A stretch of DNA of 32,000 nucleotides from Thermodesulfobacteriota bacterium (GCA_026625185.1 CP113000.1:2445622-2477621); one strand, 5' to 3'; shown: positions 6,992 to 22,772, numbered from the stretch's first letter. The notes: generated from the letters alone by a model not told the origin. Numbers and translations are program-made.

Positions 6992-8761
6992 TTATTTCTC
7001 AATGAAACTTTTTAAATTTTTACTGCGAGTAGGATGCCGCAGCTTCCTTAAGGCCTTTACTTCTATTTGCCTGATTCTTTCTCGGGTCACATCAAAATCC
7101 TGCCCAACTTCTTCTAAGGTATGGTCAGCTTTTTCTCCGATTCCGAAACGCATCCTTAAAACCTTTTCCTCTCGGGGGGTTAAGGTCGCTAAAACCCTTC
7201 GAATGATATCAGAAAGATTGGTATTTACCACCGACTCCCCCGGAGAAAGGAAACTTTTATCTTCAATAAAATCTCCTAAGTGGCTATCTTCTTCTTCTCC
7301 AATAGGGGTCTCTAAAGAAATTGGTTCTTTGGCGATTTTAAGAACCTTTCTCACTTTGTCAAGAGGAAGTTCCATCTTTTCCGCAATTTCTTCAGGGGTG
7401 GGTTCACGACCGATTTCCTGAACCAAGAGGCGGGAGGTTCGGATCAGTTTATTGATTGTTTCAATCATATGGACGGGGATTCTAATGGTTCGCGCTTGGT
7501 CGGCGATTGCGCGGGTTATGGCCTGTCGGATCCACCAGGTCGCATAGGTGCTAAACTTATAACCCCGTTGATATTCAAATTTATCAACCGCCTTAATCAA
7601 TCCGATATTCCCTTCTTGGATAAGATCTAAAAACTGGAGGCCACGGTTGGTATATTTTTTAGCGAGGCTTACCACTAACCGTAAATTGGCCCTTACCAGT
7701 TCTTCATTGGCTGATTTGGTCTTGGTTTCCGCGCGCACTAAGGTTCTGTGGGTTTTTCGAAGCTCACTGGCGCAAAGTTCAGATTCTTGTTCAATCCGCT
7801 TATATTTCTTGGTAAAATTATTATACATCCGCTCCAGTTCTTCGGCCTGTTCTAAATCGAAACCGGCTTTAGCAAGGATACGGATTTTTCTCTTAGGATA
7901 TTTTTTTATTTCCGCCAATATTTTCTCTATCTCTTTTTTCGCTATTTTTGTTGACTCAATATATTTTTTCCATTCCTTTTCAGCAGCCTCGAGCTGGGAA
8001 AAGAATGATTTTAACTTATCGCCAATCATCTCAATCTGGCGAGGATTAAGGAGGGCCTCTCGAGAATAATTTAGAGCTAAAAGTTTTCTTCGAATAAGTT
8101 TGTCTTTGATTACTTTTGCTTTATCTTCATCTTTTCCCGCTTTAGCTAACTGAGATTGCAACTGTCGTATCTGTTTTTCGATTACCCGGATTTTCACAAC
8201 TAAATCTAAAAATTTTTGGGTTTGAAATTCCTTATCCTGAACCGGAACTTCTTCATCGTCACTAATAATTTCCTGAATCGTGATTTTTTTGTTGATAAGT
8301 TTTTCTTCGAGGCTATAGAGCTTTTTTAAGGCGAGCGGAGTATTAAGAATTACATCAAAAGTTTCTTGTTTTGCCTTTTCGATCCGTTTGGAAATTTTTA
8401 TCTCTTCTTCGCGGGTCAAGAGGGAATGGGCCCCCATCTCTTTAAGATACAATCTAACGGGATCAGCTGCTACTCCGGCAACACTTGCGGTTAAAACCTT
8501 TTCATCGGCTTCGCTTTCTTCAATCGGTTCTTCTTCGGGAGATTTGATGACATCTTTGTCAGAAATCATTACCTTATGGAGGTCATCAACGATTTCAACC
8601 GCCACCTCACCAAACATGCCCATTAAATCATCAATCTGATCGAGTGAAATAATGTCTGCAGGTAAAACAGTGTTTACTTCATTATAGGTGACGAAGCCTT
8701 TTTCTTTAGTCAGATTAATTAATTGCTTTATTCGATCAACCTTTGGTTTTTTTGCCATCAA
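6992..8761 (-). CDS. rpoD: RNA polymerase primary sigma factor (sigma-70)
   Basis: The 589-aa ORF contains [40 protein letters not shown] (region 2) and [30 protein letters not shown] (region 4.2). Confidence 0.97.
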
Positions 8762-8780
8762 ACTCTCCCGTACTTTGACA

Positions 8781-10559
8781 TTACAAGTTCAAAAGAGCGC
8801 CTATAGTAGCAGGTAAGTTTTTTTCCTGAAGGATGAGTTTAACTTTTTGCTCATTCAGGTCTCGGACTTTAGAATCATCTAGACTTTCTTGGGCTTTCTT
8901 AATCTTTATGGTTAACTGAGTCTTCATTTTTTTAAATTTGTTTCTTTTGATTTGTAAAACGCAGTCTTTTAAACTCTCGGTAATATCGGCAAAGTTTTCT
9001 TCTTTAAGACTTAAGCGCATGGTGAGCTTTCTTTTTTCTTCTCCTAATTGGTCAATTAATGTGGTGAGTTCCACTTCACCCTCTTTGTGATACAGAAGGA
9101 TAACGGTTTTAGCTATTTCCTGTAAAAGATGACTATCAAAATCTTCCACGACTTTGACCGTATCCACAGCGGGGATTAGTTCTGGTTTTTGAAGCATGAG
9201 GGTAAGGAGAAACTCTTCCAGCCGTGTCTCCTCTATGGGTGGTGAAGAGAGTTCTTTGGCGTGATGAGACACCGGCGATACCCCTAAACTACGGAGCCGA
9301 TCTTCTCGCACCCCTAATCTTTCGGAAAGTTTTCGAATATACTCATCTTGAATAATTGGCTCTCGTATGTAACCAATAATGGGCATGACCTCTTTAATGA
9401 CTTCAACTTTTCCCTCGGGGAGGGAAACATTTTTTTTCTCAATGGCCCTCTCAATGAAATGTTCGATCAGCAAAGGAGCAGTTTCCATTTTTTTTCGAAA
9501 ATTTTCCGCGCCTTTTTGCTGGATAAATTCATCGGGGTCAGAGCCAGAGGGGAGAATTATCACCCGGGGAGAGAGCCCTTCGCTTAAAAACATCTCCAAA
9601 CTTCTCAACGCTGCTTTATCTCCGGCTTCATCCGAATCAAAAACAACATAAAAACGAGAGGTGAAACGTTTTAAGGTTTGAATGTGTCCCCCTGTAAGGG
9701 CAGTGCCCAAAGGAGAGACGACCGAACAAATTCCTGCTTGAAAGAGACTTAAGAGATCAAAATATCCTTCTACAATTAAAACCTGGTCTTCCTTAGCAAT
9801 AAAATTTCTGGTTATGGGGAGCCCGAACAGGCTTGAGCTTTTTTTATAAATCATTGAATCAGAAGAGTTGAGATATTTAGGGGTCCCACCACCTATTGCT
9901 CGACCTCCAAATCCAATAATCATTCCGTTCAAATTGAAAATGGGGAAAATAATTCTTCCGCGGAAACAGTCAAAAAATCCGCTTTTTCCCCTGGGGGCGA
10001 TCAATCCCAATTGTTTTGCCATTGGTAAAGGGATTTTGCTCTTATTAAGAAAGGTTGCTAAACCATCCCACGTCTCGAGGGCATAACCAAGCTTAAATGT
10101 TTCCCATATTTTTTGATCAATACCTCGTTTATTAAGATATTTTCTCCCAACTTCTCCTTCAGGTCTTTGCATTAAGACCTGATGGAAAAAGTGCATAGCT
10201 TTTTCGTTTATTTCCAGGAACGTTTCTTGGTCGGTTGCTTTTTCTTTCCTATACGAAGAAGGGGGCAGGAGTGAGAGCCCATATTTATGCGCTAATTGAC
10301 TAACCGCTTCAACAAAGGAGAGGTTATTTATCTCTCTCAAAAACGTAATGACATCACCTCCCTTTTGGCATCCGAAACAATAAAAAATCTGTTTTTCCTC
10401 ATTTACATGAAATGAGGGGGTTTTTTCGGAATGGAAGGGGCAAAGAGCCAGGTAGTTTTTACCCGCTTTTTTAAAGGTTACGTATTCGGAGATGATATCA
10501 ACAATATTAGCTCGACTTCTAATTTCTGCCAATTTTTCTCTTGGAAAAAAAGAGGCCAA
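8781..10559 (-). CDS. dnaG: DNA primase
   Basis: The 592-aa ORF has the zinc finger [30 protein letters not shown], the TOPRIM motif IVEGYFD, and the acidic patch VVFDSDEAG. Confidence 0.97.
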
Positions 10560-12959: not shown

Positions 12960-13075
12960 TTTAATTGCTTTTTTAAAAAACTTGAAAAAATTTATTGCAT
13001 AATTTTTTAAAATAAAGTAAATGGAGTGCTTAAATAATTTTTATACAATTTTACTGCAAATAACAATTTTTTTAT

Positions 13076-13148
<73 letters not shown>

Positions 13149-13475
13149 TCAGTATTTTTAATGACTTAGCTTAATTGTGTTAGGTCCTTTTTTGTTACCC
13201 GACCATTTTGTCCCCACTTTTTAAGTTAAGTATTGTGAAAAGAGGGTAGGGTAAAACTTATACCTCTTCCTAAACAAAGCATTCACTCCTTACCGGCACT
13301 ACTTCAAGGGACTGGGTTTCCAAAAGGGTGTAGACCCCCCCCTAAGACCCCAGTCACCCCTTCGTTTGAGTGTAGACTGGACCAATTTTACACAGGGGGG
13401 AAATTTATGAGGGCTAGCCATTTTTTGTTATTAGGTAAGCATGGGCGCCGAAATAAAGCGCTTAACCTATTCCCT

Positions 13476-14012
13476 TCACTCATCCGGAGAGTACGATAAT
13501 ATTTCATCCCTGAATCGTGCCGGGGCTGTGTAAGGGTGAAGCTCGCTCTTTGTCCTATCAAGGATATGCCGCACACAAACTCCTGCCGCCTTCAGGTAAT
13601 CGGCAATTAACGACCGATGACACCTCCACCAGACTGCTTCCGCGCACATGACGACCGTTCGTTTCCGAGAGGCCAGATCCAACAGTCGTTTGACTCCTGC
13701 ACGAAACTCTTTTGTCTCCATGTAGTCCGCATAGCCGCGAAATGATTCGTTGCGCCAGAGGGTGTTTTGCGAGTCCGGACGCGGCTGCCTTCGCCCGCCG
13801 AGTTCGGGCAGCAGAACATACTCTATTCCAACTCCTGTGAGTGAAATGCGAAGTGCGCCTTGATTGAAGTGTGGGTATTTACGGGAAGCCGGGACACGTC
13901 TCACATCAGCCAGAGATTCGATCTTATTATTGGTGAGCAACTCGAAAAATTCGCAAAGGGTTCGAGTTGAATGCCCCACCGTCCAAATAGTCAACTCCTC
14001 TTCATTCATCAT
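13476..14012 (-). CDS. DUF488 domain protein (copy 1)
   Basis: The 178-aa ORF with TIWTVGHSTRTLCEFFELL...IESLADVRRVPASRKYPHFNQ...VVMCAEAVWWRCHRSLIADYL is the DUF488 signature as I recall it. It is more GC-rich than the host backbone. Confidence 0.85.
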   Translation of the reverse strand: MMNEEELTIWTVGHSTRTLCEFFELLTNNKIESLADVRRVPASRKYPHFNQGALRISLTGVGIEYVLLPELGGRRQPRPDSQNTLWRNESFRGYADYMETKEFRAGVKRLLDLASRKRTVVMCAEAVWWRCHRSLIADYLKAAGVCVRHILDRTKSELHPYTAPARFRDEILSYSPDE

Positions 14013-14101
14013 ATAAAATCGCTGAGTGTCCGTCTAAAAATGTTTGTATGGTTTTCCTAGGATACATAGGTAAATGATTATATTTGGCATAAGACCCCTT
14101 T

Positions 14102-14136
14102 TTAAGGATTTTATAATTTTACGGACGGCCTCTTTC
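14102..14136 (-). promoter_or_regulatory. 35-nt motif upstream of the DUF488 gene, shared with the 96-aa gene upstream region
   Basis: TTAAGGATTTTATAATTTTACGGACGGCCTCTTTC matches 14679-14713 (TTAAGAATTTTATAATTTTATGGACGTCCCCTTTC) at 31 of 35 positions. The minus strand carries a TATAAAAT -10-like box. The motif is duplicated at 18355-18389 in copy 2. Confidence 0.45.
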
Positions 14137-14328
14137 CTTCTTCCAAGGAGCCGCCCCCCCTTCGGTCAACGGCGAGGGTCAGGTTCAGCGAGCTTGTGAG
14201 AGCCGTAACCTGGACTTTCTGGTTGGATATCTGTCTATCCTGTTTTCATCTTTTGTGAAGCATCCCGTCCAGAACCAATTCTAATCATAGAAATGCATCT
14301 ACCGGACTCCTCTGAATGTGCGCTCTTG

Positions 14329-14619
14329 TCATTGCTGAGCAACAGTGCCCGCCAAGCGGGCGGAAATCTCCGACAACTTCCGTATAATAATCCAGTTCTG
14401 CTTCACCACGGCAGCGAGATATCCGACTGTTGCCTGGTCTGCAGCATTGGCGAACGAAAACGCCATTCCCGCTTTCATCAGGCTGAGGCCAGTGAGATCA
14501 GTGGCGATTTCCTCGATCATCGCCACGTCTGCTGCGTCAATCTCCGTTAGGTGATACTTCTGTATGAATTCGTTCTTCTTGCGCTCGATTTTTTTCTCCT
14601 TGCTCTCAAACAGTCCCAT
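14329..14619 (-). CDS. 96-aa hypothetical protein (copy 1)
   Basis: A good RBS (GGAAGAAAGGAGGATCAC) lies upstream of the ATG. The product is MGLFESKEKKIERKKNEFIQKYHLTEIDAADVAMIEEIATDLTGLSLMKAGMAFSFANAADQATVGYLAAVVKQNWIIIRKL. I recall a QNWIIIR-type motif from uncharacterised small proteins but cannot name a family. Confidence 0.6.
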   Translation of the reverse strand: MGLFESKEKKIERKKNEFIQKYHLTEIDAADVAMIEEIATDLTGLSLMKAGMAFSFANAADQATVGYLAAVVKQNWIIIRKLSEISARLAGTVAQQ

Positions 14620-14678
14620 GTGATCCTCCTTTCTTCCTGCCTAACAATGCTTATATTGATCCGTATAAGATCACATTG

Positions 14679-14713
14679 TTAAGAATTTTATAATTTTATG
14701 GACGTCCCCTTTC
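14679..14713 (-). promoter_or_regulatory. 35-nt motif upstream of the 96-aa gene (paralogous to 14102-14136)
   Basis: See 14102-14136. It lies 60-95 nt upstream of the ATG at 14619 and is duplicated at 18932-18966. Confidence 0.45.
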
Positions 14714-14819
14714 TTCTCCCGTCCCCTTTCTTCTCCTTTTCATATTATTTCCTCCTTCTCTCATTAAACTATTCTCTAAGCTTTCCTGCCACTTCCCATT
14801 ATTTCTCTAAACAGCCAAT

Positions 14820-16862: not shown

Positions 16863-16969
16863 TGACCAGCCCTCGAAAGATGTACCACATTTAGAGTTAG
16901 GATTCTACCAGTTAATGTTTTTCAATATTACCTGATTTCAGGTTCCGGAGAAAATCCAAAAAGATAAAC

Positions 16970-17072
16970 TCAACCCTATTAATTTTCTTTATACCCTATC
17001 CGCCTGAACGGAGTCCTTCTCGGGTCGGGAAATTCTACCGGGAGTTTTTCCTGAAAAGAATTCTTTTTAAAA
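16970..17072 (+). repeat. R element copy R2
   Basis: It is about 97% identical to R1 over 92 nt and has the same orientation. Confidence 0.85.
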
Positions 17073-17139
17073 ACCAAGAAGCCTCGTTTGACCAACTCAG
17101 CAACCATTGTTAGAGAAAACAATAATGATAGTTCCTTTT

Positions 17140-17224
17140 GAATTTTTACCCCCGCAGTGCAGGGGATGAAACCATATGATGGGGTAAACGCTCGGTTGGC
17201 TCCCCCCTACCATACCCATCGAAC
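17140..17224 (+). repeat. X block copy X1 (conserved noncoding block of the island right arm)
   Basis: GAATTTTTACCCCCGCAGTGCAGGGGATGAAACC...CGGTTGGCTCCCCCCTACC aligns colinearly with 22492-22576. My by-eye estimate is 70-75% identity with one 1-nt indel. Confidence 0.75.
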
Positions 17225-17359
17225 TTCTATCCTTGCTACCATTTTGCTACCATAACAAGCCAAAACAGGAAACAACAAGGGACAACAAGAGAAAGTTAAA
17301 TTATTAATTTCTTTCTTATTCTTCCTTCCTGTTATCCCTTATTATGTACTTGCAAAGAC

Positions 17360-17401
17360 CTGAAAATCCGTGTGTCGACAGTTCGATTCTGTCCCTCGGC
17401 A
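17360..17401 (+). repeat. att-like direct repeat: exact copy of the last 42 nt of tRNA-Phe (anticodon loop to discriminator)
   Basis: CTGAAAATCCGTGTGTCGACAGTTCGATTCTGTCCCTCGGCA is identical to 13107-13148. There is no 5' half, so it is not a functional tRNA. Confidence 0.95.
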
Positions 17402-17728
17402 TCAGTATTTTTAATGACTTAGCTTAATTGTGTTAGGTCCTTTTTTGTTACCCGACCATTTTGTCCCCACTTTTTAAGTTAAGTATTGTGAAAAGAGGGT
17501 AGGGTAAAACTTATACCTCTTCCTAAACAAAGCATTCACTCCTTACCGGCACTACTTCAAGGGACTGGGTTTCCAAAAGGGTGTAGACCCCCCCCTAAGA
17601 CCCCAGTCACCCCTTCGTTTGAGTGTAGACTGGACCAATTTTACACAGGGGGGAAATTTATGAGGGCTAGCCATTTTTTGTTATTAGGTAAGCATGGGCG
17701 CCGAAATAAAGCGCTTAACCTATTCCCT

Positions 17729-18265
17729 TCACTCATCCGGAGAGTACGATAATATTTCATCCCTGAATCGTGCCGGGGCTGTGTAAGGGTGAAGCTCGCT
17801 CTTTGTCCTATCAAGGATATGCCGCACACAAACTCCTGCCGCCTTCAGGTAATCGGCAATTAACGACCGATGACACCTCCACCAGACTGCTTCCGCGCAC
17901 ATGACGACCGTTCGTTTCCGAGAGGCCAGATCCAACAGTCGTTTGACTCCTGCACGAAACTCTTTTGTCTCCATGTAGTCCGCATAGCCGCGAAATGATT
18001 CGTTGCGCCAGAGGGTGTTTTGCGAGTCCGGACGCGGCTGCCTTCGCCCGCCGAGTTCGGGCAGCAGAACATACTCTATTCCAACTCCTGTGAGTGAAAT
18101 GCGAAGTGCGCCTTGATTGAAGTGTGGGTATTTACGGGAAGCCGGGACACGTCTCACATCAGCCAGAGATTCGATCTTATTATTGGTGAGCAACTCGAAA
18201 AATTCGCAAAGGGTTCGAGTTGAATGCCCCACCGTCCAAATAGTCAACTCCTCTTCATTCATCAT
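17729..18265 (-). CDS. DUF488 domain protein (copy 2, identical)
   Basis: The translation is identical to 13476..14012. Confidence 0.85.
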   Translation of the reverse strand: MMNEEELTIWTVGHSTRTLCEFFELLTNNKIESLADVRRVPASRKYPHFNQGALRISLTGVGIEYVLLPELGGRRQPRPDSQNTLWRNESFRGYADYMETKEFRAGVKRLLDLASRKRTVVMCAEAVWWRCHRSLIADYLKAAGVCVRHILDRTKSELHPYTAPARFRDEILSYSPDE

Positions 18266-18581
18266 ATAAAATCGCTGAGTGTCCGTCTAAAAATGTTTGT
18301 ATGGTTTTCCTAGGATACATAGGTAAATGATTATATTTGGCATAAGACCCCTTTTTAAGGATTTTATAATTTTACGGACGGCCTCTTTCCTTCTTCCAAG
18401 GAGCCGCCCCCCCTTCGGTCAACGGCGAGGGTCAGGTTCAGCGAGCTTGTGAGAGCCGTAACCTGGACTTTCTGGTTGGATATCTGTCTATCCTGTTTTC
18501 ATCTTTTGTGAAGCATCCCGTCCAGAACCAATTCTAATCATAGAAATGCATCTACCGGACTCCTCTGAATGTGCGCTCTTG

Positions 18582-18872
18582 TCATTGCTGAGCAACAGTG
18601 CCCGCCAAGCGGGCGGAAATCTCCGACAACTTCCGTATAATAATCCAGTTCTGCTTCACCACGGCAGCGAGATATCCGACTGTTGCCTGGTCTGCAGCAT
18701 TGGCGAACGAAAACGCCATTCCCGCTTTCATCAGGCTGAGGCCAGTGAGATCAGTGGCGATTTCCTCGATCATCGCCACGTCTGCTGCGTCAATCTCCGT
18801 TAGGTGATACTTCTGTATGAATTCGTTCTTCTTGCGCTCGATTTTTTTCTCCTTGCTCTCAAACAGTCCCAT
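18582..18872 (-). CDS. 96-aa hypothetical protein (copy 2, identical)
   Basis: The translation is identical to 14329..14619. Confidence 0.6.
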   Translation of the reverse strand: MGLFESKEKKIERKKNEFIQKYHLTEIDAADVAMIEEIATDLTGLSLMKAGMAFSFANAADQATVGYLAAVVKQNWIIIRKLSEISARLAGTVAQQ

Positions 18873-19342
18873 GTGATCCTCCTTTCTTCCTGCCTAACAA
18901 TGCTTATATTGATCCGTATAAGATCACATTGTTAAGAATTTTATAATTTTATGGACGTCCCCTTTCTTCTCCTATCTTCCCTTCCTAAAAATCAAATAAA
19001 AATTTATTCCTGAAATTTCATGCTTACGTTATACGATGTTTTGCTTTTATAGTAAGTGCTTAAAGAAGGGAAGCCGAAAAACGAGGTTCGCCAGAGCTTA
19101 AGAAGGGCTTTTCAAGGCGAAGGTTATTTTTGGTTTTTGTCTTACAAAAAAATTTACAAAATTAACCTCATATAGACAGATATATAAAATTATTGTAGAT
19201 TTTAATTTTACAGGGTACAATTAACCATGCCTTGATGGAAAAACGACACTATTTCCTTTGAACCACCCGGGACAGAACCGAATGATCCGTAATTTCATTG
19301 ACCCGGCGTTTTTCCGAATCCGCATTTTTTAAGGGAGTAGTC

Positions 19343-21055
19343 ATGCCCAAAAAGCCTGCGAACCTGATTTACGCGGTGGATGAAAATCCGCCTGTGGGGA
19401 TTACCCTGCTCCAGGGAATTCAACACGTTTTTGTTTTGGCGGTCTATTTCATCTTTCCCGTTATCGTCGTCAATTCGGTAAACGGCACGAATGAGGAGGC
19501 CGCAACCATAATCAAGATGTCCATGATCGTCATGGGGTTGACCACGATTATTCAGGCGCTTTCCAAGGGACCTGTGGGCTCCGGCTATCTGGCCCCTGAC
19601 GGAAATGGCCCCGCCTACCTGTCCTCCGCCATGCTGGCCGCCAAAACCGGGGGGATATCTTTGATCTTCGGCATGACCCTCGTCAGCGCCTGTTTCAAGG
19701 CCGTCTTCTCCCGCCTGGTGAACCGCCTGCAGTTCCTATTTCCACCGGAAGTGGTCGGCCTCGTCGTCACCATGGTGGGAATTGAAATCATTCCTTTGGG
19801 CATTACACGGTTTTTCGGCCTGCAGCAATCCGGTGGCGCCATCGACCCCGGTGTTTTCCTGGTAGCCATGGCTACCTATGCGACAATGGTGGGCATCAAT
19901 ATCTGGGGTAAAGGCTGGCTTCGTCTTTATCCTATCCTCATCGGCATGGCCGTCGGCTATTTGTCATCGTATCTGTCCGGCATTCTCACCCCGAGTGACC
20001 TGCGCCACGTTACCGCCGAATCATGGATTTCCATGCCGCACTTCGCAGCCTTCGGCTGGAGTTTCGATATTTCGTTGTTGTTTCCGTTTTTAATCGCCAG
20101 CTTGTGCTCCTCCCTTAAAACCATCGGTGACTTGACTATGTGCCAGAAGATCAACGACAGTGAGTGGAAACGCTCTGATATGAAGTCCATCGGCCGGGGC
20201 ATCCTGGCCGACTCGCTGGGCGACACCTTGAGCGGGCTGATCGGCAGTCTTGGCCAGACAACCTCATCCAGCAATATCGGTTTCTCCATGGCCACCGGGG
20301 TTACCAGCCGCCGGATCGCCTTTGCCATCGGGGGCATCCTCTGCCTGCTGGCCTTTTTGCCCAAGCTGGCCCAAGTCTTTGTGATCATGCCCCGGCCGGT
20401 CATGGGCGCCATCCTGATCTTTGTGGCCAACTTCATGATTCTGGCTGGCATTCAGATTATCGCCACCCGAATGCTGGACGTTCGGAAAATTTTTGTCATC
20501 GGTACCTCCGTCATCTTCGGTCTTTCGGTCTTTTTATTCCCTAAGGCTTACAGCAACGTGCCCGCACTCCTACACCCGATTTTTAGCTCGGCCTTGTCGC
20601 TCGCCACCATTTCCGTGATCGTTTTGAATCTCATCTTTCGGATCGGCATTGCAAAGCGCAACGGCTTGGTTCTCGACACGAAAGAAAAAGAAGTTATGGA
20701 GACGCTCAGAACCTTTATGGAAAATCAAGGCGGTGCATGGGGTGCCCGACGAGAGGTGATCAAGCGGGCGGAATACGCCTTGAGCGAGTTCATGGAATCC
20801 CTCATCGGTTTGCAGCTGACCGAAGGCCCGGTAAGCCTGGAGGTAAGCTTTGAGGAGATGAGCCTGGATTTGAGTTTAAATTATAAAGGGCGACCGCTGG
20901 AATTTCCACCCCAAGTCCCCAGTGCTGCTGATTTGCTGGAAGACAAGACCGCAGTTTTCCGACTCTCCGGTTTTATTATCAAAAATTACGTGGATCGGAT
21001 CAAGACCGTCGAGAAAGACGGCAGATGCCGAGTTATGTTTCATTTCGACCATTGA
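19343..21055 (+). CDS. NCS2 (xanthine/uracil/vitamin C) family permease with about 120-aa C-terminal cytoplasmic extension
   Basis: I prefer the start at MPKKPANL because an AAGGGAG RBS lies 6 nt upstream. The product is multi-TM with a nucleobase-permease-like N-terminus (LLQGIQHVFVLAV) and mid-region (GDLTMCQK, TTSSSNIGF). The C-terminal soluble tail is LVLDTKEKEVMETLRTFMENQGGAWGAR...CRVMFHFDH. The gene is clearly more GC-rich than its surroundings. Confidence 0.85.
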   Translation: MPKKPANLIYAVDENPPVGITLLQGIQHVFVLAVYFIFPVIVVNSVNGTNEEAATIIKMSMIVMGLTTIIQALSKGPVGSGYLAPDGNGPAYLSSAMLAAKTGGISLIFGMTLVSACFKAVFSRLVNRLQFLFPPEVVGLVVTMVGIEIIPLGITRFFGLQQSGGAIDPGVFLVAMATYATMVGINIWGKGWLRLYPILIGMAVGYLSSYLSGILTPSDLRHVTAESWISMPHFAAFGWSFDISLLFPFLIASLCSSLKTIGDLTMCQKINDSEWKRSDMKSIGRGILADSLGDTLSGLIGSLGQTTSSSNIGFSMATGVTSRRIAFAIGGILCLLAFLPKLAQVFVIMPRPVMGAILIFVANFMILAGIQIIATRMLDVRKIFVIGTSVIFGLSVFLFPKAYSNVPALLHPIFSSALSLATISVIVLNLIFRIGIAKRNGLVLDTKEKEVMETLRTFMENQGGAWGARREVIKRAEYALSEFMESLIGLQLTEGPVSLEVSFEEMSLDLSLNYKGRPLEFPPQVPSAADLLEDKTAVFRLSGFIIKNYVDRIKTVEKDGRCRVMFHFDH

Positions 21056-21438
21056 TCAGCTATGTCGATTCAAGGCTGAGAACCCTGTTGTTTGACCAGC
21101 ATTTATATGTTTAGAGAAGGTAATCGGCGCTATTGATCTTATATTTATTGGTGCCAATGGCGGCGAGAATGGGGGCATATACCTACTCCTTTCATCTTCT
21201 CTTGCTCCGCATCCGACCCTACGCTTGCTACAGCTAGTATTCCGCAAACACGTGTATAACTGTCGAAAGTACTCCTTCCCTGAAATAATTTCTGGGAAGC
21301 TTGGCAGATTTCGCTATGCGATTTCAAGTCGAGGACAGGCATAAATTGCATCTTTTGTTTGGTATATTATAATGTTATAAGATTTTATCTCCGGTTATTC
21401 CGGACAGTAGTGAGCTTAAATATAAGATTATTAATCAA

Positions 21439-21476
21439 AGCCTAACCGCGTTTGAAATACTGGTTAGCCTTTTTTA
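21439..21476 (+). terminator. Rho-independent terminator
   Basis: The hairpin is GCCTAACC-loop-GGTTAGCC (one mismatch) followed by TTTTTT. Confidence 0.55.
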
Positions 21477-21554
21477 AATTATTTTTAGTAAATTATTTGT
21501 AGAAGAAAAAAACACGGAAAGCCCTGCATGCTGTTCATCGTTTTACCCTATTCA

Positions 21555-21647
21555 TTTTTCCCTTATTAACCAATAAGGCTGGACGGTGTCCCTCTCGGGT
21601 CCAGATTTTTATTTTACTGCTAATTTCAAAAATGAATTGTTTTTAAA
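21555..21647 (+). repeat. R element copy R3 (diverged)
   Basis: The core CGGTGTCCCTCTCGGG is closed by the perfect stem CTGGA/TCCAG. The copy ends in AAAAATGAATTGTTTTTAAAGG, as in R1/R2. Confidence 0.6.
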
Positions 21648-21700
21648 GGAGTTTTATTTTCAACAAAAAAAACCCTAAATTTTTTTCTCCTACCATAGAC

Positions 21701-21895
21701 TTATTTCTTATTACCGAGTAATTTAAAACTATGATCCGCCAAGCTAGTAACATTATCAACTAAAAAGATAATCCCTCGGGGGTCATTCTCGACAACTAAT
21801 TCTGAAATAGCTTGTATAAATCCTTCCAATAATGTCCCAAATCTTTTACGGTATTTTATGCCGTGCTCGTTTTTTTGCTCTTTTGTCATTCCCAT
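21701..21895 (-). CDS. 64-aa hypothetical protein
   Basis: The internal ATG has a GAAAGGG RBS-like sequence upstream. The product is MGMTKEQKNEHGIKYRKRFGTLLEGFIQAISELVVENDPRGIIFLVDNV... I recognise no family. Confidence 0.4.
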   Translation of the reverse strand: MGMTKEQKNEHGIKYRKRFGTLLEGFIQAISELVVENDPRGIIFLVDNVTSLADHSFKLLGNKK

Positions 21896-22281
21896 TGTTT
21901 TACCCTTTCTTTCATAAAGTTGTTTTTGATTGCTCCAATTTCCAATTAAATTCTTGGCCCGCATGGAAATCTTCTGCAGGTTATTTGGACTTAAAAAACC
22001 TTCTCGACAAAAAAATTTCCGGCCATAAATCGAGGAAAAGAGGGTTTAAGGATATTTTAACAATAAACCTTTACCCTTTAAAAAAAATAAGGTGAATTAT
22101 GTATTTTTAGAAAAAAAATATGGAATTTTAGAGATATGGATAAAGAAAGGATAAAATTTCTAAATCATCCTTGCATGGCTTTTAATTTCTAAGAAAATTT
22201 ATAAATTGAATAGTCGTAGGATAGTGTGTCTTTGAAAAGAATACAGACTAACTCCCTCAATGATAGTTAGTTTTGATTCCA

Positions 22282-22366
22282 TTTATATCCTAATCGCCGT
22301 TCTAACGTCCCTCGCGGGGCGGGAAAATCCCCTGAAGGTTTTTCGGAAAAACATGCTTTTTTAAAA
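22282..22366 (+). repeat. R element copy R4 (diverged)
   Basis: It aligns gap-free with R2 at 56 of 85 positions (my count). The core is ACGTCCCTCGCGGG and the copy ends in TTTTTTAAAA. Confidence 0.65.
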
Positions 22367-22491
22367 TAGTTTTAATTCCAGCAATAAAAAAAGACCTCGA
22401 ATTGAGACCCTTTTTTATTTTTTTAAATTGTAGAGTTTTTGTTTAGTATACAGAACAAACCAGGCCAAAACAGACGCAAAATATCTAAGAT

Positions 22492-22576
22492 GAATTCTTA
22501 CTCCCGAAATGCAGGGGAAGAAACCCTATTGTGTTGTCAACGGTCGGTAGGCTCTCCCTACCAAACCCCCGGGAAG
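22492..22576 (+). repeat. X block copy X2
   Basis: GAATTCTTACTCCCGAAATGCAGGGGAAGAAACC...CGGTAGGCTCTCCCTACC contains the perfect GGTAGG/CCTACC hairpin. Confidence 0.75.
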
Positions 22577-22731
22577 AGTAAAATTTATCCGTTTATGTCT
22601 TTAAAATGTCTCCATAATCAAACAAAAGACCAAATACCACTAAACACCAGGATAAAGGTATCAACACATAATTATTAAATTTTGTTGTTTTGTCTTTTCC
22701 TTGTTTTAGGTTAATTTTGCCTTGGTTCACT

Positions 22732-22772
22732 CTGAAAATCCGTGTGTCGACAGTTCGATTCTGTCCCTCGCA
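22732..22772 (+). repeat. att-like direct repeat: third, slightly degenerate copy of the tRNA-Phe 3' part
   Basis: CTGAAAATCCGTGTGTCGACAGTTCGATTCTGTCCCTCGCA equals 13107-13148 with one G deleted in the acceptor 3' strand. The next 64 nt or so are about 75% identical to the sequence following copies 1 and 2. Confidence 0.9.

Follow-up and report, generated by a model that had tools for sequence, protein, structure and literature searches.

Lambda-type attP arms are noncoding stretches of about 150-250 nt beside the core, and they carry paired direct repeats spaced by one helical turn. Genomic islands integrated at tRNA genes (Islander type) are marked by a displaced tRNA fragment and often by a decayed integrase. 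Cis-mobilizable elements (CIMEs), and the accretion by which they are stacked, are defined in PMC5704250. Solitary repeat units of the CRISPR type, including RNA anti-CRISPRs (Racr), are called by SRUFinder at an identity and coverage of at least 90% to a known CRISPR repeat, and the hosts infected by about 90% of their carriers possess CRISPR-Cas (Camara-Wilpert et al. 2023, PMC10651486). Here we analysed a stretch of 32,000 nucleotides, the window, from the genome of a Thermodesulfobacteriota bacterium (GCA_026625185.1 CP113000.1:2445622-2477621). Two islands, E1 and E2, lie in tandem in it at a tRNA-Phe gene, and each ends in a noncoding right arm that contains a conserved block, X. An earlier note on this DNA had described X as a solitary CRISPR-repeat-like hairpin. 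We hold with moderate confidence that X is a genus-restricted noncoding module of an attP-derived arm in decayed, integrase-less (CIME-like) islands, which is an accessory site at the level of DNA or what remains of such a site.

By the definition in PMC5704250, E1 and E2 can be regarded as CIMEs that were stacked through accretion. Exact 39-nt copies of the 3' part of the tRNA gene bound them as attL and attR, mobility genes for integration and transfer are lacking altogether so that only cargo is carried, and a search of the genome gave neither a relaxase nor a coupling protein. They stand head to tail at one tRNA gene and have decayed relatives elsewhere in the genome. They differ from described CIMEs in that no functional integrative and conjugative element or integrative and mobilizable element is present as a partner at tRNA-Phe, mobilisation being putative, and in that the host belongs to an uncultured delta-proteobacterium-type lineage and is not a Firmicute. 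With Islander-type islands they share a fragment beginning at the anticodon loop, metabolic or regulatory cargo and a broken or missing integrase, whereas here the arm modules are common to islands at at least six tRNA/tmRNA (transfer-messenger RNA) genes of one genome. The right arms also resemble lambda-type attP arms in length, in noncoding character and in the spacing of their paired repeats, whose words vary from one related element to the next and are found again on the two arms of an island that still has its integrase. Unlike in lambda-type arms, a block of about 85 nt, X, is conserved across differing cores and paired-repeat words. It is missing from some homologous arms, and it is not known to be bound by Xis, IHF or integrase.

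Right arms of the tandem islands at tRNA-Phe

The last 39 nt of the intact tRNA-Phe gene recur exactly at 17360-17398 and 22732-22770, and the three copies delimit the two islands, of about 4.2 kb (E1) and 5.3 kb (E2). The features of the two right arms and of their target are as follows. Labels beginning with g denote X copies elsewhere in this genome, G001 and G002 are other genomes of the genus, and L030 is a metagenome contig.

13075..13150, + strand: intact tRNA-Phe(GAA), the integration target, on the attL side of E1 (ARAGORN; Rfam tRNA 75 bits)
16966..17072, + strand: R element that opens the right arm of E1, from a dispersed repeat family found in many island right arms
17097..17139, + strand: upstream module U1, which accompanies X in E1, g842, g2224, g2226 and G001 (BLAST, alignment)
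17140..17224, + strand: X block of E1, with the CRISPR-like hairpin CCCC-N8-GGGG and then ATGAAACC
17233..17253, + strand: paired direct repeat, TTGCTACCAT twice with a period of 11 nt, candidate arm-type integrase sites
17272-17289: second pair of E1, ACAACAAG twice
17300..17359, + strand: T/C-rich end of E1, opening with AATTATTAA and abutting the att core
17360..17398, + strand: displaced tRNA-Phe 3' fragment (att core) at the E1/E2 junction
22260..22366, + strand: R element in the right arm of E2, with 61% identity to the reference copy of R
22430..22491, + strand: upstream module U2, common to the X copies of E2, g925 and L030 (alignments)
22492..22576, + strand: X block of E2
22595..22611, + strand: paired direct repeat ATGTCT-N5-ATGTCT, period 11 nt, the sole such pair in the genome
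22670..22731, + strand: T/C-rich end of E2, opening with AATTATTAA
22732..22770, + strand: second displaced tRNA-Phe 3' fragment, attR of E2

The two right arms were colinear, with a mean column identity of 73% in the alignment, and the order in both is R, a spacer, X, a repeat-bearing stretch, the T/C-rich end and the tRNA fragment. No credible open reading frame (ORF) was found in the last 390-450 nt of either island. This layout, the coordinates of both X blocks and the spacings after R (67 nt in E1 and 125 nt in E2 as measured) had been described correctly in the earlier note; the identity between the two X blocks was slightly higher than its 70-75%, namely 79.7% over 79 nt. Two distinct upstream modules of about 45-70 nt accompany X in subsets of its copies. 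The ATGTCT pair of E2 occupies the aligned position of the E1 pair. The paired-repeat module of E1 also adjoins tRNA-Arg, tRNA-Val and a second Phe-like fragment, and an arm that abuts another Phe-like fragment (genome position 390394-390528) has 87% identity to the T/C-rich end of E1.

No recombinase was found in E1 or E2, as the note had said: none of the 17 matches to PF00589 in the genome falls inside the window. The cargo identified by Pfam comprises DUF488, a Fur-family regulator and a xanthine/uracil-type permease, and the other small ORFs that were searched have no family. The first 1.6 kb of the two islands are identical (13107-14719 and 17360-18972). This duplication is real, because the contig depth of the block was about 1650, against about 800 for its neighbours, in the probable source run. 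The flank beyond the fragment at 22732-22770 is itself left-arm-like, with 74% identity to the island left arms. Contigs from four DNA runs (a sediment run that is the possible source, two anaerobic-digester runs and another sediment run) showed the same tandem layout and no excision or informative joint, rare forms being invisible in contigs. Low-depth contigs of the digester and second sediment runs, which match the window without differences, include pieces that span the E1 X block and the E1/E2 junction.

Copies of X and their place in tRNA- and tmRNA-linked islands

A profile search with nhmmer detected eight full copies of X in the 3.3-Mb genome. X occurs once per island, as the earlier note had it, yet it is not private to E1 and E2, six copies lying outside the window. 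These copies and the integrase genes near them are listed here.

842120-842274, - strand: X copy g842
925050-925570: integrase remnant, broken
925966-926064, - strand: X copy g925
1501486-1501585, - strand: X copy g1501
2223981-2224140, - strand: X copy g2224
2226691-2226852, - strand: X copy g2226
2396584-2397105: integrase remnant next to tRNA-Val, with an internal TGA
2400219-2400311, + strand: X copy g2400
adjoining the tmRNA gene: gene for a 433-aa integrase

A partial copy lies near tRNA-Leu(TAA). Two of the three other genomes of the same genus contain one copy each (G001 and G002), and one more copy is on the 1.7-kb contig L030. Another 37 relatives, from the family and the class, gave no copy of X. 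When GTDB species genomes, JGI metagenomes and IMG/VR were scanned with a pattern, the true relatives recovered were only the G002 copy and one short metagenome contig; in IMG/VR there were only matches to the search pattern itself and no X. The copies form a decay series from 87% identity down to barely detectable.

A genome-wide search for extra tRNA and tmRNA ends gave 22 displaced fragments, nearly all of which begin at tRNA position 31-34, in the anticodon loop. Five of the eight copies of X in this genome (E1, E2, g925, g1501 and g2400) are in islands linked to tRNA or tmRNA genes, and all five are co-oriented with the tRNA: g925 faces a 54-nt tRNA-Leu(CAA) fragment that closes a 4.9-kb island at tRNA-Leu, g1501 is in an island array at the tmRNA gene, and g2400 is in an island at tRNA-Val(CAC). 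The distance from the end of X to the displaced fragment is 135 nt in E1 and 155 nt in both E2 and g925, so that X lies beside the core at a similar distance in these three islands and in a fixed orientation in five. Genes or remnants of tyrosine integrases, reading toward the tRNA, occupy the tRNA-proximal end either of the same island or of an adjoining one.

The second regularity concerns the repeats that follow X. Tandem direct repeats with a period of 10-12 nt start 8-40 nt after X in E1, E2, g925, g2400, G002 and g1501, and the repeated words differ between copies (TTGCTACCAT, the 6-nt word ATGTCT in E2, ATCCAACT, ATAGGCAA and ATTGTAGACA). Pairs with this period, about one helical turn, were present in 14 of the 22 right arms, 60-180 nt from the fragment, as compared with 6.7% of random 220-mers. 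They look like a family of candidate arm-type integrase sites with element-specific words. Many of the right-arm pairs have the shape TTTTG followed by 4-6 variable bases. In the island at tRNA-Arg(ACG), which has an intact gene for a 414-aa integrase (485367-486608), the word TTTGTCCCC occurs on both arms (genome 485322 and 506959). In E1 and E2 the same word stands 57 nt into the left arm (window 13207 and 17460), and their left arms have 72% identity to the left arm of the tRNA-Arg(ACG) island, whose 414-aa integrase is thereby a candidate for a partner acting in trans. Right arms at tRNA-Phe, -Arg, -Val, -Leu, -Ser, -Lys and the tmRNA gene have modules in common, placed at equal offsets from the core. 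The arms are mosaics of interchangeable modules, in a genome rich in short dispersed intergenic repeats (R, the pyrimidine-rich end and the left arm).

Such an arm has the anatomy that one would look for in an attP-derived arm with integrase sites of the arm type. The earlier note, which had offered arm sites of site-specific recombination as one of its readings, was right to this extent: the core distance of 135-155 nt, the shared orientation and the paired element-specific repeats after X all point that way. In the scheme that we propose, a family of tyrosine-integrase elements would insert into the part of tRNA and tmRNA genes from the anticodon loop to the 3' end, and X would lie on the P-arm side of their attP, now attR. 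E1 and E2 would be decayed members that lost the integrase and kept both att junctions, and that were stacked at tRNA-Phe through successive integration. X would work, if at all, as double-stranded DNA, perhaps as an outer platform bound by an accessory protein, either a directionality factor or a nucleoid protein, or as an extra arm site for integrase, and the neighbouring paired repeats would be the element-specific integrase contacts. Because no cognate integrase is resident, E1 and E2 probably contain X as a relic, and it would be workable only if an incoming related element supplied the enzyme.

Several observations weigh against this explanation. E1 and E2 have no PF00589 match of their own and the integrases near other X copies are broken or unrelated; the remnants are only about 30% identical to each other, and no single lineage co-varies with X. 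No tRNA fragment is near g842, g2224 or g2226, and X is not next to a recognisable core in g1501, g2400 or G002; in G002 it follows a tRNA-like fragment by about 200 nt. In four related arms (tRNA-Arg fragment 3, the 390-kb Phe-like fragment, tRNA-Val and tRNA-Lys) R abuts the paired repeats without X, and therefore X is dispensable for that type of arm. Its distance of 150-235 nt from the core puts X at, or outside, the limit to which a lambda-type P arm usually extends. The conservation of X could also reflect recent spread by recombination instead of function.

Some further features were observed around these copies. The near-identical degenerate direct copies g2224 and g2226 (L056:5982-6141 and 8692-8853, - strand; genome 2223981-2226852) flank a 523-aa ORF without a Pfam family, in a variable region where a resolvase-like ORF, a fragment of endonuclease V and a SIR2-like gene are found as well. 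The noncoding DNA 3' of X is about 76% conserved over about 500-700 nt between the 2400-kb locus of this genome (L055:5312-5960) and G002 (L013:8816-9460), and it is partly kept in G001 (L063:1-450, - strand). Blocks of this stretch are near-invariant, and it contains a terminator-like hairpin; Rfam gave no match to it, and this genome has it in a single copy. The fragment before X in G002 (L013:8505-8545) is a tRNA- or tmRNA-like 3' end with its own terminator, preceded by tRNA-Ala and a 348-aa ORF without a Pfam family, core and X standing there in the opposite order to the window's. In the tmRNA-linked island, a match to the int-alpA RNA (RF02996; 38.2 bits, gathering score 35.8) is located at L002:12026-12097 (+ strand; genome 1503025-1503096), upstream of a 385-aa ORF without a Pfam family; besides the 433-aa integrase, this island has a gene for a 684-aa protein whose HBD domain is of the NrS-1-polymerase type. 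Two tyrosine-recombinase paralogues of about 200 aa, which consist of the catalytic domain only, are 84% identical and truncated to an equal length (1499802-1500455 and 2197085-2197687), and they may represent a real short gene instead of independent wrecks.

Alternative explanations of X

The main alternative, which we judge rather unlikely, is that X is functionless repeated DNA, an ancestral arm fragment or a small non-autonomous repeat spread by homologous recombination or gene conversion and conserved only through youth. The abundance of short dispersed intergenic repeats and the mosaic build of the arms are in its favour, as are the gradation of the copies from 87% identity to barely detectable and the identical 1.6-kb block of E1 and E2, which shows active homogenisation. 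It would also explain the absence of X from four otherwise homologous arms, its confinement to one genus, the three copies away from any tRNA fragment and the G002 copy that lies after, not before, the tRNA-like fragment. On the other hand, X is at least 85% identical between E1 and g925 and between E1 and L030 while both flanks are unalignable, and its orientation and core distance are kept at three independent tRNA sites. The segment by which the E1 arm exceeds the arms with only R and repeats has no terminal inverted repeats or target duplication at its boundaries; insertion of an element resembling a miniature inverted-repeat transposable element was rejected on this ground, and the same finding counts against spread as a small repeat.

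More doubtful is the possibility that X is the 5' part or the promoter of a small noncoding RNA that is read toward the island end and stops at the terminator after the tRNA fragment (E1, E2 and g925) or at a terminator-like hairpin about 400 nt downstream (g2400 and G002). A terminator-like hairpin does lie downstream of the E1/E2 junction fragment, at 17416-17439, and the roughly 700 nt of conserved noncoding DNA after X common to g2400 and G002 end in a hairpin and a T-run. As read from the alignment, TAT..T is invariant and TGAAAC stands 16 nt before CG.T in most copies, an arrangement loosely like a promoter for an extracytoplasmic function (ECF) sigma factor. No sigma-70 promoter was found at X, however, no Rfam family scored at or near threshold in any X copy, and the gene or RNA downstream is inconsistent across copies.

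The fold of X bears on the same question. The earlier note had claimed two conserved hairpins, and what stands of this is a 4-bp hairpin in part of the copies. Hairpin 1 has a C/G stem with three one-sided C-to-U changes, which preserve G-U pairs on the plus-strand RNA only, a point in favour of an RNA. It is disrupted in g2400, g2224, g2226 and g842, and 3 bp are left in g1501. RNAalifold retained only this 4-bp stem, without a compensatory change. Hairpin 2 (GGTWGG/CCTACC) is perfect only in E2; 68% of its cells were paired, with a range of 68-71% over it and an alternative 9-bp hairpin, and the covariation of both was no better than in shuffled controls. The z-scores of single-sequence folds ranged from +0.6 to -2.1 on either strand. 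Neither compensatory changes nor unusual stability was thus detected, in tests on 7-10 sequences that had low power. Since there are no compensatory pairs and the folding energies are unremarkable, X is, judging from these alignments, conserved as sequence and not as fold.

Two other origins of the block were rejected. A minus-strand frame is open in six of seven copies, but its peptide is less conserved than the DNA, and substitutions by codon phase across the seven copies numbered 30, 29 and 16, with neither coding periodicity nor an excess at third positions. Derivation from the 3' end of tmRNA gave a local alignment no better than shuffles (p = 0.09-0.64).

A bolder form of the RNA explanation, in which X, the paired repeats, the tRNA fragment and the terminator form one RNA of about 300 nt whose tRNA-derived part directs a trans-encoded recombinase to the tRNA gene, seems to us very improbable. 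If true, it would explain why one set of arm modules stands beside cores from at least six tRNAs and how the islands persist without an integrase of their own. In a milder form of it, X would be a small RNA, regulatory or a decoy, that the islands carry.

The CRISPR explanation, by which X would be a solitary repeat unit (a Racr-type decoy or a guide resembling CRISPR RNA) working with Cas proteins or an RNA-guided recombinase, is scarcely credible. It was suggested by a likeness: X contains a single repeat-like hairpin with a GAAAC tail, is intergenic, and lies in a region derived from mobile elements with no array or cas genes nearby, as solitary repeat units do (PMC10651486). Rfam CRISPR-DR10 was also the top-ranked match to the E1 hairpin with ATGAAAC. 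The score was, however, 18.1 bits (E = 0.26 in a 521-nt search), and 12.7 bits (E = 9.6) for the X block of E2, against a gathering score of 39, and about 23 of 37 positions (about 62%) are identical to the DR10 consensus. This match, the best among all Rfam CRISPR-DR models, which were used as a proxy, lies far below the 90% asked for by SRUFinder.

The genome that was searched for CRISPR and Cas is 94% complete and in one contig. It contains no CRISPR array, three candidates from a spacing scan being protein-coding tandem repeats, and Cas1, Cas2, Cas3-HD, Cas6 and Cas6e were not found. Cas1 was found in none of four genomes of the genus (this one and three others), and a search of 61 relatives for RF01323, the DR10-type repeats, gave nothing above the cut-off. 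X therefore differs from solitary repeat units also in that its host and genus are without CRISPR-Cas, of a matching subtype or any of the families searched. The CRISPR repeats beside Cas1 of class-level relatives are unlike X except for a G/C stem and a GAAAC tail. The repeat-like part lacks conservation within the X family, GGGG or GAAAC being mutated in four or five of the ten copies, whereas conservation of X reaches well past a repeat-sized part. The earlier note had tied its proposal to a matching CRISPR repeat in the genome and to conservation of X in related islands; the latter was observed and the former was not.

The analogy to a guide RNA fared no better. The stretch after GAAACC, which would be the spacer, is conserved among islands at different tRNAs, and its longest matches to the tRNA-Phe site are 7-8 nt, equal to those of shuffled sequences. 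Because of this conservation across different tRNAs and the chance-level complementarity, it is not a target-specific guide. Both a solitary CRISPR repeat and a guide RNA were rejected as identities of X, and its likeness to a CRISPR repeat looks coincidental.

Finally, oriT sites often consist of a short inverted repeat and then an invariant stretch, and islands without any mobility genes might profit from an origin-of-transfer mimic (a hairpin with a conserved nick region) that lets a conjugative element mobilise them, but we give this next to no credence, as no Relaxase, TrwC, MobA/MobL relaxase or TraG/VirD4-type coupling protein was found in the genome and the hairpin, a stem of no more than 4 bp, is not maintained throughout the family.

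Meaning for the islands of this genus

The analysis removes a tempting false lead, that of an orphan CRISPR repeat on a recombinase-less island. The island right arms that contain X are most likely fairly ordinary docking arms left from integrase-type mobile elements, of a family that is specific to this lineage and targets tRNA genes. The genome-wide picture is one of at least 22 displaced fragments, with arms put together from a few interchangeable modules (R, X, paired repeats and the pyrimidine-rich end), most of them without a working integrase. If X is a site for a shared accessory protein, it would show how islands lacking an integrase remain competent for recombination in trans, which would be a modest advance and not a new kind of system.

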